Shown one piece after another: positions 1 to 5,196 of a DNA stretch of 5,196 bases. Within the stretch, counting starts at the first letter, position 1. Each line of letters opens with the position of its first letter. The notes beneath the pieces are model-generated. The model did not search any database, was not told the origin of the DNA, and worked only from the letters and a program-made list of their open reading frames with translations. The stretch lies in assembly GCF_003334335.1 (NCBI RefSeq), contig NZ_QOWQ01000077.1, one strand, 5' to 3'. The stretch is from Escherichia coli. GTDB lineage: Bacteria > Pseudomonadota > Gammaproteobacteria > Enterobacterales > Enterobacteriaceae. A program made the position numbers and the translations under genes.

Positions 1-167
1 AAGCGTGTCTGGATGCTGTTCTGGAGTTCTTCTGCGAGTTCGTGCAGCTTCTCACACATGGTAGCCTGTTCGTCAGCATCGAGGGCGTCCAGCTTTTCGA
101 GCAGCGTCAGGCTTTGGCTTTTTATGAATCCTGCCATGTTGAGTACGGCTTGCTGCTGCTTGTTCAT
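1..167 (-). CDS. rom: Rom/Rop (RNA one modulator), 5-prime portion; the gene wraps the window boundary of the circular plasmid (start codon at 167, stop at 5092..5094)
   Basis: Reverse-complement translation from ATG (complement of 165..167) gives MNKQQQAVLNMAGFIKSQSLTLLEKLDALDADEQATMCEKLHELAEELQNSIQTR..., continuing across the junction to ...FEVENSTER* (64 aa). This matches the recalled ColE1/pBR322 Rop (63 aa; ...ALNMARFIRSQTLTLLEKLNELDADEQADICESLHDHADELY...). An in-frame stop lies 14 codons upstream of the ATG and a GGAG lies 11 nt upstream. Confidence 0.85.
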   Translation of the reverse strand, partial: MNKQQQAVLNMAGFIKSQSLTLLEKLDALDADEQATMCEKLHELAEELQNSIQTR

Positions 168-426: not shown

Positions 427-774
427 ATGTCAGATACGGAGCCATGTTTTATGACAAAACGAAGTGGAAGTAATACGCGCAGGCGGGCTATCAGTCGCCC
501 TGTTCGTCTGACGGCAGAAGAAGACCAGGAAATCAGAAAAAGGGCTGCTGAATGCGGCAAGACCGTTTCCGGTTTTTTACGGGCGGCAGCTCTCGGTAAG
601 AAAGTTAACTCACTGACTGATGATCGGGTACTGAAAGAAGTTATGAGACTGGGGGCGTTACAGAAAAAACTCTTTATCGACGGCAAGCGTGTCGGGGACA
701 GGGAGTATGCGGAGGTGCTGATCGCTATTACGGAGTATCACCGTGCCCTGTTATCCAGGCTTATGGCAGATTAG
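427..774 (+). CDS. MbeC/MobC-like mobilization accessory protein (ribbon-helix-helix nicking accessory factor)
   Basis: ORF of 115 aa immediately downstream of the bom/oriT-like sequence. The N-terminal region has the pattern RPVRLTAEEDQEIRKRAAECGKTVSGFLRAAAL, typical of RHH mobilization accessory proteins. A more likely start is the in-frame ATG at 451 (107 aa), which has GGAG at 438..441, 9 nt upstream. The C-terminal half does not show the motif I expect for the relaxase-interacting domain, so the family assignment is tentative. Confidence 0.6.
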   Translation: MSDTEPCFMTKRSGSNTRRRAISRPVRLTAEEDQEIRKRAAECGKTVSGFLRAAALGKKVNSLTDDRVLKEVMRLGALQKKLFIDGKRVGDREYAEVLIAITEYHRALLSRLMAD

Positions 775-997: not shown

Positions 998-1426
998 TTA
1001 CTGTCTGCCCTCGTATCCATCGAGATAAACCGCAGAAATGGTGTCTGCCATTAGTTTCATTTTTTTCGGCGAAGGCATATCGCTGTTTGTGTATTTTCTG
1101 CCAGCAAAGGTTGTTGTGCTCCGGAGTGAGTGAAAAAATTTTTCTGAGTGGAATTCTTTTACACGTTGCTGTGCCGTTTCTGCTGATACTCCGGCTGCTT
1201 TGTCTTTCATCCCCATATCCCGGAACTGCTGAAAGAACGGGAGCATCATACGTATGGTGTCTGCTTTCTGGGTGTAGAAGTTAGGATCAAATCCATCATC
1301 TGAAGCATAAACATAATGCCGGGTATGTCGTTCCAGGCTGGTCTTTGGTGTGCATCCTGTAAGAGCTATTGTTGCTGTTATCAGAGGTATCAGAAGCAGC
1401 CTGGCAGCGGCAGATCTCATAAACAT
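998..1426 (-). CDS. Hypothetical lipoprotein (142 aa), function unknown
   Basis: The N-terminus MFMRSAAARLLLIPLITATIALTGC has a positively charged n-region, a hydrophobic core and an LTGC lipobox, indicating a signal peptidase II substrate. The mature part is hydrophilic. I recognise no family. The stop codon lies 3 bp from the cer XerD arm. Confidence 0.6.
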   Translation of the reverse strand: MFMRSAAARLLLIPLITATIALTGCTPKTSLERHTRHYVYASDDGFDPNFYTQKADTIRMMLPFFQQFRDMGMKDKAAGVSAETAQQRVKEFHSEKFFHSLRSTTTFAGRKYTNSDMPSPKKMKLMADTISAVYLDGYEGRQ

Positions 1427-1541: not shown

Positions 1542-1820
1542 GTGAAAAAATGTGTGCCAGTCCTGCTTTTTAGTGTTCTTTCTGCTTCGGTTGCCAGTCA
1601 TGCGGACAGCAATGTTTTTCAACAAAAGGCCGAGAAGACAAAAAACGGCATTGTTGCGGATGTTAATGCCAGACAGAAAATGTTCAGTAACAGACTGAAG
1701 ATACAACTTCAGATCGATGAGTTGAGAGCAGAGCTGGCTGGCACCAGAGATGCCCAAAAAAGAGAGGATTTGCGTAAAAAACTGGAGTCTCTGGAGCGGC
1801 AAAAGAAATCCTTACGCTGA
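1542..1820 (+). CDS. Hypothetical secreted or periplasmic small protein (92 aa), charged and probably helical
   Basis: GTG start with AGGA about 7 nt upstream. Signal peptide MKKCVPVLLFSVLSASVASHA with an AxA-like cleavage site (SHA|D). The mature ~71 aa are K/E/R/Q-rich with heptad-like spacing (QLQIDELRAELAGTRDAQKREDLRKKLESLERQKK). Divergently arranged with the lipoprotein gene across a 115-bp intergenic region. Confidence 0.5.
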   Translation: MKKCVPVLLFSVLSASVASHADSNVFQQKAEKTKNGIVADVNARQKMFSNRLKIQLQIDELRAELAGTRDAQKREDLRKKLESLERQKKSLR

Positions 1821-2129
1821 TGGGGGCGTATTTTCCCCGGTTTCTTCCATAACCTTTTTACCGTTCAGATATTTACGGGCGAGGCGAATGCGTCTTGCCT
1901 GGTATACCGCCGAGTAAGCCTGGGTGGGATTCACACCATTACTGATTTCACTGACCACATGACGCTGATCTGCCAGTGTCAGCGTGTAAACCTGTTTCTG
2001 GATGAGGTCACGGGCTTTGTCATGCTCATATCCGGCAGCAACAAGGGTGTCGAGAAGTCGTTTGTCTGTTTTGTTCAGTTTATGGCGGGGTGATTTGCTC
2101 ACATCGTTCTCCGTTTTTTCATGATCCAA
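1812..2129 (-). CDS. Hypothetical basic protein (105 aa), putative DNA-binding (HTH-like)
   Basis: ORF convergent with the 1542..1820 gene (9-bp overlap) and divergent from the colicin promoter. The segment DKRLLDTLVAAGYEHDKARDLIQ looks like a helix-turn-helix. An alternative start is GTG at 2102, preceded by GGAG. No family recognised. Confidence 0.45.
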   Translation of the reverse strand: MDHEKTENDVSKSPRHKLNKTDKRLLDTLVAAGYEHDKARDLIQKQVYTLTLADQRHVVSEISNGVNPTQAYSAVYQARRIRLARKYLNGKKVMEETGENTPPSA

Positions 2130-2199: not shown

Positions 2200-2216
2200 T
2201 GTGATCCTTATTGCAA
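2200..2216. promoter_or_regulatory. Possible CRP-binding half-site upstream of the colicin promoter
   Basis: tgtgatccttattgcaa has TGTGA, a 6-nt spacer, then TTGCA (3/5 match to TCACA), centred about 60 nt upstream of the predicted transcription start. Colicin E1 expression is known to be catabolite-sensitive. The match is weak. Confidence 0.25.
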
Positions 2217-2234
2217 AAATGAAAATCCATGCTC

Positions 2235-2263
2235 TTGACATGGACAATGCTGAATAGTAGGTT
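2235..2263 (+). promoter_or_regulatory. Colicin operon promoter
   Basis: Perfect -35 TTGACA at 2235..2240, a 17-bp spacer, and a -10-like TAGGTT at 2258..2263, immediately upstream of the LexA boxes. Confidence 0.55.
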
Positions 2264-2267
2264 TTTG

Positions 2268-2298
2268 CTGTACATAAAACCAGTGGTTATATGTACAG
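2268..2298. promoter_or_regulatory. Tandem overlapping LexA (SOS) boxes
   Basis: CTGTACATAAAACCAG (2268..2283) overlaps a second box read on the bottom strand, CTGTACATATAACCAC (2283..2298). This dual-box arrangement is characteristic of colicin promoters and nearly identical to the recalled colicin E1 operator. Confidence 0.85.
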
Positions 2299-2346
2299 TA
2301 TGTTGTTTTTAATTTATTGTTTTAATTATCAAAGAGGAATTTCTTT

Positions 2347-3819
2347 ATGGATAAAGTCACTGATAATTCTCCAGATGTGGAGAGCACAGAATCTACTGAG
2401 GGGTCATTCCCAACTGTTGGGGTTGATACTGGCGATACGATTACAGCGACGCTTGCAACTGGAACTGAAAATGTTGGTGGAGGCGGTGGAGCATTTGGTG
2501 GGGCCAGTGAAAGTTCTGCTGCGATACATGCAACCGCTAAATGGTCTACCGCGCAGTTGAAAAAACATCAGGCTGAACAGGCTGCCCGTGCTGCTGCGGC
2601 TGAGGCAGCATTGGCAAAAGCGAAATCTCAGCGTGATGCCCTGACTCAACGTCTCAAGGATATTGTTAATGACGCTTTACGTGCTAATGCCGCTCGTAGT
2701 CCATCAGTAACTGACCTTGCTCATGCCAATAATATGGCAATGCAGGCAGAGGCTGAGCGTTTGCGCCTTGCGAAGGCAGAGCAAAAAGCCCGTGAAGAAG
2801 CTGAAGCAGCAGAAAAAGCGCTCCGGGAAGCAGAACGCCAACGTGATGAGATTGCCCGCCAACAGGCTGAAACCGCGCATTTGTTAGCAATGGCGGAGGC
2901 AGCAGAGGCTGAGAAAAATCGACAGGATTCTCTTGATGAAGAGCATCGGGCTGTGGAAGTGGCAGAGAAGAAGCTGGCTGAGGCTAAAGCTGAACTGGCG
3001 AAGGCCGAAAGCGATGTACAGAGTAAGCAAGCGATTGTTTCCAGAGTTGCAGGGGAGCTTGAAAACGCTCAAAAAAGTGTTGATGTGAAGGTTACTGGAT
3101 TTCCTGGATGGCGTGATGTTCAGAAAAAACTGGAGAGACAATTGCAGGATAAGAAGAATGAATATTCGTCAGTGACGAATGCTCTTAATTCTGCGGTTAG
3201 CATTAGAGATGCTAAAAAAACAGATGTTCAGAATGCTGAGATAAAATTAAAAGAAGCTAAGGATGCTCTTGAGAAGAGTCAGGTAAAAGACTCTGTTGAT
3301 ACTATGGTTGGGTTTTATCAATATATAACCGAACAATATGGGGAAAAATATTCCAGAATAGCTCAGGATTTAGCTGAAAAGGCGAAGGGTAGTAAATTTA
3401 GTAGTGTTGATGAAGCTCTTGCTGCATTTGAAAAGTATAAAAATGTACTGGATAAGAAAATCAGTAAGGTTGATCGGGATGCTATTTTTAATGCGTTAGA
3501 GTCTGTTAATTATGATGAGTTATCTAAGAATTTAACGAAGATATCAAAGTCGCTTAAAATCACTAGTCGAGTATCTTTTCTATATGATGTTGGTTCTGAT
3601 TTTAAAAATGCAATAGAAACTGGTAACTGGCGACCTTTGTTTGTCACGCTGGAGAAAAGTGCGGTCGATGTAGGTGTGGCAAAAATTGTGGCATTAATGT
3701 TTAGTTTTATTGTTGGTGTGCCTCTTGGTTTCTGGGGGATTGCAATTGTCACAGGTATTGTTTCTTCTTACATAGGGGATGATGAGTTGAACAAACTTAA
3801 TGAGTTGTTAGGGATTTAA
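2347..3819 (+). CDS. cta: Pore-forming colicin, colicin E1 family (490 aa); best recalled match is colicin 10
   Basis: AGAGGA lies 9 nt upstream of the ATG. Residues ~55-130 ([29 protein letters not shown]...[16 protein letters not shown]...[31 protein letters not shown]) and the C-terminal channel domain (YGEKYS...[28 protein letters not shown]...LKIT..VSF.YDV.SD...TG.W.PLF.TLEK.A.D.GV...VAL.FS...[15 protein letters not shown]....LN..NE.LGI) closely parallel the recalled colicin E1 sequence. The N-terminal ~50 aa and the central region differ. The 490-aa length, the 96-aa immunity protein and the 43-aa lysis protein fit my recollection of colicin 10, but colicin 5 or a close relative cannot be excluded without a search. 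Confidence 0.85.
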
Positions 3820-4106
3820 TTTCTCTTTAGAGTGTAATATATGAAACTTGGCAATCCTACTGGGATTGCCATTAATAAATAAAACAATGCAGATAACTTG
3901 CATAAGTACCAGGGTTCTTTTTTTAACTTTGTATTTTCTTTGATATATCTAGATATGGTTAATTTAGAGTATGGATATAGCAATACATGTATTGATGATA
4001 TAAATATAAATAACAAAGGAGTGTTATCATTGTCGTTAAATATTAAAATAAGAATCCATGGTATAAGTGATTCAGGTAAATTATGTAGGTAGTATTTTAA
4101 ATGCAT
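3816..4106 (-). CDS. cti: Pore-forming colicin immunity protein, E1 type (96 aa, integral membrane)
   Basis: Convergent with the colicin gene; the two stop codons overlap at 3816..3819. The protein is very hydrophobic and AT-rich in codon usage, with about three predicted transmembrane segments. Motifs [15 protein letters not shown] and [14 protein letters not shown] resemble the recalled colicin E1 immunity protein (...CPYSKYAIEHIF..., ...LAIPFGLLGLVY...). Confidence 0.8.
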
Positions 4107-4135
4107 AAGTATTTTTACTTTTGTTGGAAAGAAAT

Positions 4136-4267
4136 ATGAAAATAATAATTTTTCTAATTACAATATTATTCTTGTCAGGATGTCAAGCAAACTATATTCG
4201 TGATGTGCAAGGAGGAACCGTTGCACCATCTTCGTCTTCTGAACTGACGGGGATCGCGGTTCAGTAG
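4136..4267 (+). CDS. ctl: Colicin lysis (release) lipoprotein, 43 aa
   Basis: Not in the supplied ORF track (too short). Hand translation gives [43 protein letters not shown], with GGAAAG 5-10 nt upstream of the ATG. Signal peptide plus LSGC lipobox and a short mature peptide are typical of colicin lysis proteins. It sits downstream of the immunity gene on the colicin strand, as kil does in ColE1. Confidence 0.8.
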
Positions 4268-4275
4268 AAAAGATC

Positions 4276-4302
4276 AAAGGATCTTCTTGAGATCCTTTTT
4301 TT
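4276..4302 (+). terminator. Rho-independent terminator of the colicin-lysis operon
   Basis: Hairpin aaaggatct / agatccttt with a 5-nt loop, followed by a T7 run (4295..4302), immediately after the lysis gene stop. Confidence 0.65.
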
Positions 4303-4316
4303 CTGCGCGTAATCTG
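4287..4316 (+). promoter_or_regulatory. RNA II (replication primer) promoter
   Basis: -35 TTGAGA (4287..4292), 17-bp spacer, -10 TAATCT (4310..4315). The segment tcttgagatcctttttttctgcgcgtaatctgctgc is essentially identical to the recalled pMB1/ColE1 sequence upstream of the RNA II start. Confidence 0.65.
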
Positions 4317-4321
4317 CTGCC

Positions 4322-4429
4322 TGTAAACGAAAAAACCGCCTGGGGAGGCGGTTTAGTCGAAGGTTAAGTCAGTTGGGGACTGCTTAACCGGGTAACTGGC
4401 TTTAGTGGAGCACAGATACCAAATGCTGT
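4322..4429 (-). ncRNA. RNA I antisense copy-number control RNA (about 108 nt)
   Basis: The 5-prime end ACAGCAUUUGGUAUCUGUGCUCC... is the complement of 4429 downward and is homologous to the pMB1 RNA I start ACAGUAUUUGGUAUCUGCGCUCUG. The 3-prime end is the hairpin plus U-run complementary to aaaaaaccgcctggggaggcggttt at 4327..4351. Confidence 0.75.
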
Positions 4430-5091: not shown

Positions 5092-5196
5092 TTATCTCTC
5101 TGTGCTATTTTCTACTTCAAAGCGTGTCTGGATGCTGTTCTGGAGTTCTTCTGCGAGTTCGTGCAGCTTCTCACACATGGTAGCCTGTTCGTCAGC
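5092..5196 (-). CDS. rom: Rom/Rop, 3-prime portion (stop at 5092..5094); continues as feature 1..167 across the circular junction
   Basis: Same reading frame as feature 1..167; reverse-complement translation ends ...QTRFEVENSTER*. Positions 5120..5196 duplicate 1..77. Confidence 0.85.
   Translation of the reverse strand, partial: ADEQATMCEKLHELAEELQNSIQTRFEVENSTER
5120..5196. repeat. Terminal 77-bp exact duplicate of window positions 1..77 (circular-plasmid linearisation overlap, not a biological repeat)
   Basis: aagcgtgtctggatgctgttctggagttcttctgcgagttcgtgcagcttctcacacatggtagcctgttcgtcagc occurs at 1..77 and 5120..5196. Implied unit length is 5,119 bp. Confidence 0.9.

Follow-up and report, generated by a model that had tools for sequence, protein, structure and literature searches.

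The window analysed here, the whole stretch of 5,196 nucleotides, is a complete ColE1-type plasmid of 5119 bp, read over slightly more than one turn of the circle, with the first 77 bases repeated at its end. Its stretch 2200..4330 is 99.9% identical to pEcoUTI1a (NZ_CP049851.1), a complete plasmid of 5119 bp from uropathogenic Escherichia coli, on which RefSeq annotates a Rop-family protein, a small MobA, an Exc2 lipoprotein and two hypothetical proteins, along with colicin, immunity, and lysis genes. In the window, Rfam places RNAI at 4327..4427 on the minus strand. The region under study is the 3' half of the colicin 5 operon of this 5.1-kb ColE1-type plasmid, and its features, with those found upstream of the colicin gene, are as follows.

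2235..2240, plus strand: TTGACA, a perfect -35 element of the presumed SOS-regulated colicin promoter, read from the sequence
2268..2298, plus strand: two LexA boxes, CTGTACATAAAACCAG (2268..2283) and GTGGTTATATGTACAG (2283..2298), overlapping by one base; match to the LexA consensus pattern
2347..3819, plus strand: cfa, the colicin 5 structural gene, 490 aa; open reading frame (ORF), Pfam, and exact-sequence name
3816..3819, both strands: TTAA palindrome, the shared end of the convergent cfa and immunity genes, read from the sequence
3816..4106, minus strand: immunity gene cfi (identical to cki), 96 aa, convergent with cfa; translation, Pfam, and exact-sequence name
3849..3871, both strands: GC-rich stem-loop, TGGCAATCC-TACTG-GGATTGCCA, a "T1" candidate lying 30 nt after the colicin stop, in immunity codons 79-86 (MAIPVGLP)
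3898..4092, plus strand: spurious 64-aa ORF with a TTG start, antisense to the immunity gene; mechanical ORF finder
4136..4267, plus strand: cfl, the colicin lysis (release) lipoprotein gene, 43 aa; translation, Pfam, and RefSeq
4157..4186, minus strand: candidate immunity promoter inside cfl; relaxed hexamer scan, 11/12 matches
4276..4305, plus strand: intrinsic terminator "T2", AAAGGATCTTCTTGAGATCCTTT followed by TTTTTCT, 9 nt after the lysis stop; terminator scan

The identity of the locus is settled by exact matches in curated collections. The cfa product carries the Pfam Colicin domain (PF01024, 7.5e-32) at residues 306-487, that is, the C-terminal pore-forming domain, and an exact-sequence look-up returns the names "colicin 5" and CE05_ECOLX. 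Colicin 5 is listed with Cfi, Tsx, TolC, and TonB in a published compilation (PMC9558359, Table 2). The immunity protein matches Pfam CKI over its full length (PF17500, 1e-56) and is, by exact sequence, the colicin K immunity protein (IMMK_ECOLX; RefSeq name cki). The product of cfl matches Pfam Lysis_col (PF02402, 4.2e-24) at residues 4-43 and has a signal peptide with a lipobox, LSG/C, at Cys16; LSGC fits the pattern [LVI][ASTVI][GAS]C, and the match to the LPAM_1 profile is weak (0.062). RefSeq places a "colicin release lysis protein" at the coordinates of cfl, and the exact sequence occurs on ~990 contigs. The NCBIfam HMMs matched neither the immunity protein nor the cfl product, and their sole match to the cfa product was a coiled-coil SMC artefact; it was Pfam that gave CKI and Lysis_col and resolved the toxin. 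A preliminary description of this DNA had proposed, from the letters alone, a convergent immunity gene after the colicin gene and a 43-aa lysis lipoprotein at 4136..4267. Both proposals are borne out, the former in identity and orientation by the Pfam domain, the exact-sequence name, RefSeq, and the related loci, the latter by translation, lipobox, Pfam, and RefSeq.

Compared with the published colicin 5 determinant cfa-cfi-cfl, the toxin sequence is exact, gene order and orientation are the same, and nothing of substance differs, save that the carrier is shorter: the other colicin 5 carrier plasmids found are mostly of 6.8-7.8 kb, and the 5119-bp carrier represents a short version. The locus is present at a coverage of at least 80% in 61 of 5426 complete E. 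coli genomes, nearly always on a plasmid, and all three genes, colicin, immunity, and lysis, are annotated in the records listed for the genomes that carry it. By sequence comparison the toxin is chimeric, with a colicin 10 front end (residues 1-350, ~100% identical) and a colicin K back end (residues 351-490, 94-100% identical). Pilsl and Braun reportedly described in 1995 the same chimeric make-up for the determinant cfa-cfi-cfl, and are also said to have found cross-immunity of colicin 5 with colicin K. The two parental systems resemble the present one in complementary ways. In colicin K (cka-cki-ckl) the immunity and lysis proteins are identical to those found here (WP_011264161.1, WP_077521118.1), the last 140 toxin residues are those shared with colicin 5, and the junction between toxin and immunity genes is the same; the N-terminal uptake region, on the other hand, is unrelated (10-30% identity over residues 1-200), in a toxin of 548 aa. 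In colicin 10 (cta-cti-ctl) it is the front of the toxin that is shared, along with gene layout, TTAA junction, and the stem of the hairpin, whereas identity to colicin 5 falls to 60% in residues 401-450, the part of the pore domain that specifies immunity, and the immunity protein has diverged.

Being so short, the lysis gene deserves a separate comment. It had been described as absent from the ORF list, which is correct, and as likely to be missed by length-filtered annotation, which holds in part. Mechanically the frame appears only as a 48-aa ORF starting with TTG (4121..4267), under the default cut-off of 60 aa. A naive length filter would miss the gene, but the NCBI pipeline annotates it in every record examined. 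The start given in RefSeq is ATG 4136. We rejected TTG 4121 as the lysis start: in colicin 10 a 2-nt indel disrupts the longer frame, and the codon is not preceded by a purine-rich stretch for ribosome binding. Also set aside was a CsrA-type GGA site, UUGGAAAG, at the lysis ribosome-binding site, which is present here and not kept in colicin 10.

The colicin and immunity genes end on one another. The cfa stop, TAA, occupies 3817..3819 on the plus strand, and the immunity stop, also TAA, is the complement of 3816..3818; the genes overlap by 4 nt, of which 2 nt are common to both stop codons. The overlap of the two stops, as put forward in the preliminary description, is exact to the base, 3816..3819 reading TTAA. 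The junction recurs in 8 of the 8 colicin 5, K, 10, and E1-type loci compared, namely colicins 5, K, and 10, a colicin 10-like variant, ColE1, and three E1-like loci. Elsewhere the convergent layout is retained with the stops set apart, by 8 nt in colicin N, 17 nt in Ia-type loci and in colicin B, and, in relatives outside E. coli, 17 nt in Mixta and 29 nt in Arsenophonus. Since the junction is present in all eight colicin 5/K/10/E1-type loci, the overlap is inherited rather than due to chance, a clade trait of the E1/K/5/10 group. It was already implicit in long-published sequences and is explicit in current annotation.

Upstream of cfa, the pair of LexA boxes lies 49 nt from the start codon, and such a tandem, overlapping pair is the typical arrangement of colicin promoters. 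The TTGACA at 2235..2240 is assigned as the putative -35 of the colicin promoter because it sits just upstream of these boxes; the presumed promoter has a weak -10, with TAGGTT (2258..2263) as the candidate at a spacing of 17 nt, and a scan with consensus promoters did not list the site because its -10 is poor. At the other end of the operon, the T2 terminator is a stem-loop with a stem of 10 bp (-18.2 kcal/mol, z = -3.9) and a U-tract behind it, and is kept in the ColE1 and ColN plasmids. Between the two, on the plus strand from the colicin stop to cfl, the terminator scan found no hairpin with a T-run. The locus thus displays the features of a pore-forming colicin operon: a pore domain, an immunity gene downstream on the opposite strand, LexA boxes upstream, and a lysis gene in last position. 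In operons of this kind the immunity gene is described as lying on the opposite strand with its own promoter, the lysis gene being the last (PMC9517006).

We read the locus as a colicin 5 operon in which LexA-controlled transcription would run through, antisense across the immunity gene, to cfl, and we give this reading a probability of about 90%. Upon DNA damage, LexA would leave its pair of SOS boxes ahead of cfa, after which RNA polymerase would transcribe cfa, cross the TTAA junction, and continue antisense through the whole 291-nt immunity gene, so that cfa and cfl would be co-transcribed. The hairpin at 3849..3871, which has no U-tract, probably pauses or stops a fraction of the polymerases, and the remaining transcripts would enter cfl and end at the terminator 4276..4305. 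The 43-aa lipoprotein Cfl would in turn bring about quasi-lysis and the release of the colicin. The immunity gene, for its part, would be transcribed convergently and constitutively from its own promoter, within cfl, so that the cell is protected before induction. For ColE1 and ColA, antisense read-through into the lysis gene is the accepted model; the preliminary description had proposed it for this locus, and what is seen of the anatomy here agrees with it. ColE1 (cea-imm-kil) shares with our locus the convergent immunity gene, the TTAA overlap, a homologous hairpin at the 3' end of the immunity coding sequence, a lysis lipoprotein gene in final position, and the same terminator beside the replication origin; it differs in its immunity protein of 113 aa, in the gap between the imm and kil starts (47 nt vs. 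29 nt here), and in a longer hairpin stem (13-14 bp vs. 9-10 bp here). ColA (caa-cai-cal) and the A- and Ia-type loci (N, B, Ia/Ib) likewise have a convergent immunity gene and a hairpin right after the colicin stop, and effects of convergent transcription are documented among them; in the ColA, N, B, and Ia-type loci, however, 8-17 nt lie between the two stops, and the hairpin spans this gap. No lysis gene is annotated downstream in the colicin B and Ia-type loci examined. For ColA, PMC5001618, citing Lloubes et al. 1986, states that when LexA represses the colicin operon, the convergent immunity gene is freed from transcriptional interference. Interference between the two convergent transcripts may occur here as well.

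Where the immunity gene would be transcribed from is constrained by the packing of the locus. The starts of the immunity gene (4106) and the lysis gene (4136) are just 29 nt apart, and therefore the immunity promoter must overlap cfl. The best candidate, on prediction, is the minus-strand site at 4157..4186: it would combine a -35 TTGACA (4186..4181, in the cfl codons for Cys16-Gln17), a spacer of 18 nt, and a -10 TGTAAT (4162..4157), the latter without the conserved A at the second position. Both hexamers are invariant in four loci, a conservation for which coding constraint on cfl could also account.

Could the lysis gene instead be served by a promoter of its own, inside or just after the immunity gene, so that read-through from the colicin promoter is not needed? 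The region 3820..4135 is A+T-rich and does contain weak plus-strand hexamer pairs (e.g. TTGATA-19-TAGAGT and TTGGCA-17-ATTAAT, at 9/12 matches); moreover, the ColE1 lysis gene kil is expressible by any upstream read-through, that is, it is not bound to one specific promoter (PMC6234761). Yet none of the plus-strand candidates in 3820..4135 has an acceptable -10 or spacing, neither the consensus nor the relaxed hexamer scan giving a promoter-like site of at least 9/12 with a usable -10 there, and promoter-like sites in the scanned region are no commoner than in shuffled sequence (4 found vs. 6.2 expected). The experimental precedent of ColE1 also points away from this alternative, the promoter region of the cea-kil operon, upstream of cea, being described as indispensable for kil expression (PMC6234761), and a lethal lysis gene left unregulated on a multicopy plasmid would presumably be strongly counter-selected. 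A separate lysis promoter is, on these grounds, very improbable. The same plus-strand region holds the 64-aa ORF at 3898..4092, and, if LexA-controlled read-through operates as we propose, its 64 open codons would lie within RNA made in the plus direction. As a real overlapping gene it is nevertheless effectively refuted. It begins with TTG, has no NCBIfam family match, and is unannotated in every record examined, including the RefSeq record of pEcoUTI1a and those of colicin 10, colicin K, and other related loci. Above all, stop codons interrupt the frame twice in colicin 10 and three times in the variant locus, whereas the immunity frame on the minus strand stays open at 96 aa in all. These stops uphold the preliminary description, which had called the ORF spurious. 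A codon-position substitution test cannot separate the ORF from the immunity frame because the two have their third codon positions in common.

The hairpin inside the immunity gene leaves more room for interpretation. It folds strongly in both directions (-15.1 kcal/mol, z = -3.7 on the plus strand; -16.1 kcal/mol, z = -3.9 on the minus strand), the loop varies among colicins 5, K, and 10 and the variant but the stem does not, and ColE1 has its homologous hairpin at the same place; in all the other pore-forming colicin loci sampled, a hairpin begins 6-18 nt after the colicin stop. On the plus strand, it does not qualify as a Rho-independent terminator, its 3' tail, AUUAAUAAAUAAAA, having no U-tract. 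Across the 9 locus types sampled, the post-colicin hairpin has no clean T-run in the loci with a lysis gene (5, K, 10, E1, and N), while it is a textbook terminator with a T-run in the lysis-less Arsenophonus and Mixta, the T-run being weaker in the Ia-type loci and in B. T1 terminators have been described in other colicin operons, E2 among them; a further source, to go by its title, is Lloubes 1988. On the plus strand of our locus, the element is at most an attenuator or pause hairpin, stabilization of an RNA 3' end being another candidate role; it probably acts as an attenuator that lets some polymerases reach the lysis gene. Neither of two tests for selection on the hairpin at the nucleotide level reached significance: covariation amounted to 1 compensatory pair, a G-C of colicins 5, K, and 10 that is A-U in E1, and 52 of 500 shuffles did as well, and 5 of 5 synonymous codons in the stem were identical vs. 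20 of 32 gene-wide. The conserved peptide AIPxGL could by itself explain the invariant stem.

A stronger role can be imagined for the element, in which most SOS transcripts would stop at 3849..3871, the immunity transcript would pair with the rare read-through RNA, and antisense pairing and polymerase collision, rather than plain read-through, would set the delay and the level of lysis. The strength of the hairpin, and its conserved placement just behind the colicin stop throughout the pore-forming colicin loci sampled, speak for this role; so does the fact that the two convergent transcripts, given the gene overlap, would be complementary along 291 nt or more, and the interference documented for ColA (PMC5001618) agrees with it. 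Against this, intrinsic termination should be inefficient at a plus-strand hairpin lacking a U-tract, and the covariation is not significant. We regard this as a tentative possibility, somewhat short of an even chance, and one that refines LexA-controlled read-through rather than opposing it. Going further, the hairpin may be a selected, dual-use element: on the plus strand an attenuator setting the ratio of colicin to lysis transcripts, on the minus strand a terminator masked by translation and acting on untranslated immunity RNA. If so, the pore-forming colicin loci with a lysis gene downstream would be those that have lost the U-tract, and the TTAA overlap would have arisen as a side effect of joining this element with the immunity-specificity module in a unit that recombination cannot split. 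We put this forward as a speculative and, on balance, unlikely proposal.

Overall, this locus belongs among systems whose layout is already known, its essentials dating from the 1980s and 1990s and being part of routine annotation. Overlapping stops and a very small lysis gene do exist here, but they are nothing unusual, being common to colicins E1, K, and 10, and they matter little beyond correct annotation. The locus is useful for teaching and as a test of ORF callers, since the usual length cut-off drops a genuine gene of 43 aa and retains a spurious ORF of 64 aa. It is also a textbook case of convergent, overlapping genes, in which a lethal lysis gene stands behind a protective gene of antisense orientation. 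Such tight gene packing has a plausible evolutionary role, visible in the colicin 10 front end and the colicin K back end of colicin 5.

The 77 bases at 1..77 are repeated identically at 5120..5196, at both ends of the window, which therefore represents a whole circular plasmid of 5119 bp with the sequence continuing beyond its start. Identity to the 5119-bp E. coli plasmid pEcoUTI1a (NZ_CP049851.1) is 99.9% for the stretch queried (2200..4330). Besides the colicin, immunity and lysis genes, the circle displays the following features.

427..774 (+), small MobA-type accessory protein
998..1426 (-), Exc2 entry-exclusion lipoprotein
1542..1820 (+), conserved hypothetical gene, 92 aa, signal-peptide-like N-terminus
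1812..2129 (-), conserved hypothetical gene, 96/105 aa, WP_000047032.1
3849..3871, conserved GC-rich hairpin within the immunity coding sequence, 30 nt past the colicin stop
4157..4186 (-), best candidate immunity promoter (predicted)
4327..4427 (-), RNAI

Judged by sequence identity, colicin 5 (gene 2347..3819) is a clean chimera: residues 1-350 share ~100% identity with colicin 10, and residues 351-490 share 94-100% with colicin K. Recombination joined these two parts within the pore domain, at a point upstream of the segment specifying immunity. Plasmids of colicins 5, 10, and K all carry the gene for WP_000047032.1 right next to the colicin promoter, on its upstream side; in ColE1-like and ColN plasmids this position is taken by exc1 or another hypothetical gene. 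Neither this protein nor the one encoded at 1542..1820 (+) has a match in NCBIfam. The MobA-type accessory protein and Exc2, on the other hand, match NF041264 (8.6e-33) and NF033828 (3.8e-53), respectively. PLSDB types the plasmid as "mobilizable, MOBF", even though no relaxase gene is annotated across its 5119 bp. Given that related colicin 5 plasmids span 6.8-7.8 kb, this smaller plasmid may be a deletion derivative.

Since the immunity and lysis starts are only 29 nt apart, the immunity promoter must overlap the lysis gene; TTGACA, the best candidate for its -35, is what the Cys-Gln codons of the lysis-gene lipobox read on the complementary strand. Regarding the immunity gene of ColE1, several RefSeq records present 228 nt and 75 aa from an internal start. 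In the ColE1 plasmid pSN38_s1 (1315..1656), the frame is open up to an ATG at 1656, yielding 113 aa, and 113 aa is also the length of the classical ColE1 immunity protein. The 75-aa annotation is probably a start-site error in public records.

The hairpin past the colicin stop has a longer homologue in ColE1, and the N, Ia-type, B, Arsenophonus, and Mixta loci (pore-forming colicins) have analogous hairpins behind their colicin stops; among the loci sampled, a clean T-run behind the hairpin occurs only where a lysis gene is lacking. Behind the lysis gene, the terminator hairpin (region 4276..4330) contains TTGAGA. Going by the general layout of ColE1 replicons, this and the location of RNAI place the operon terminator over the -35 region of the promoter for the RNAII primer. 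Upon induction, the colicin operon could read through into the replication control region.
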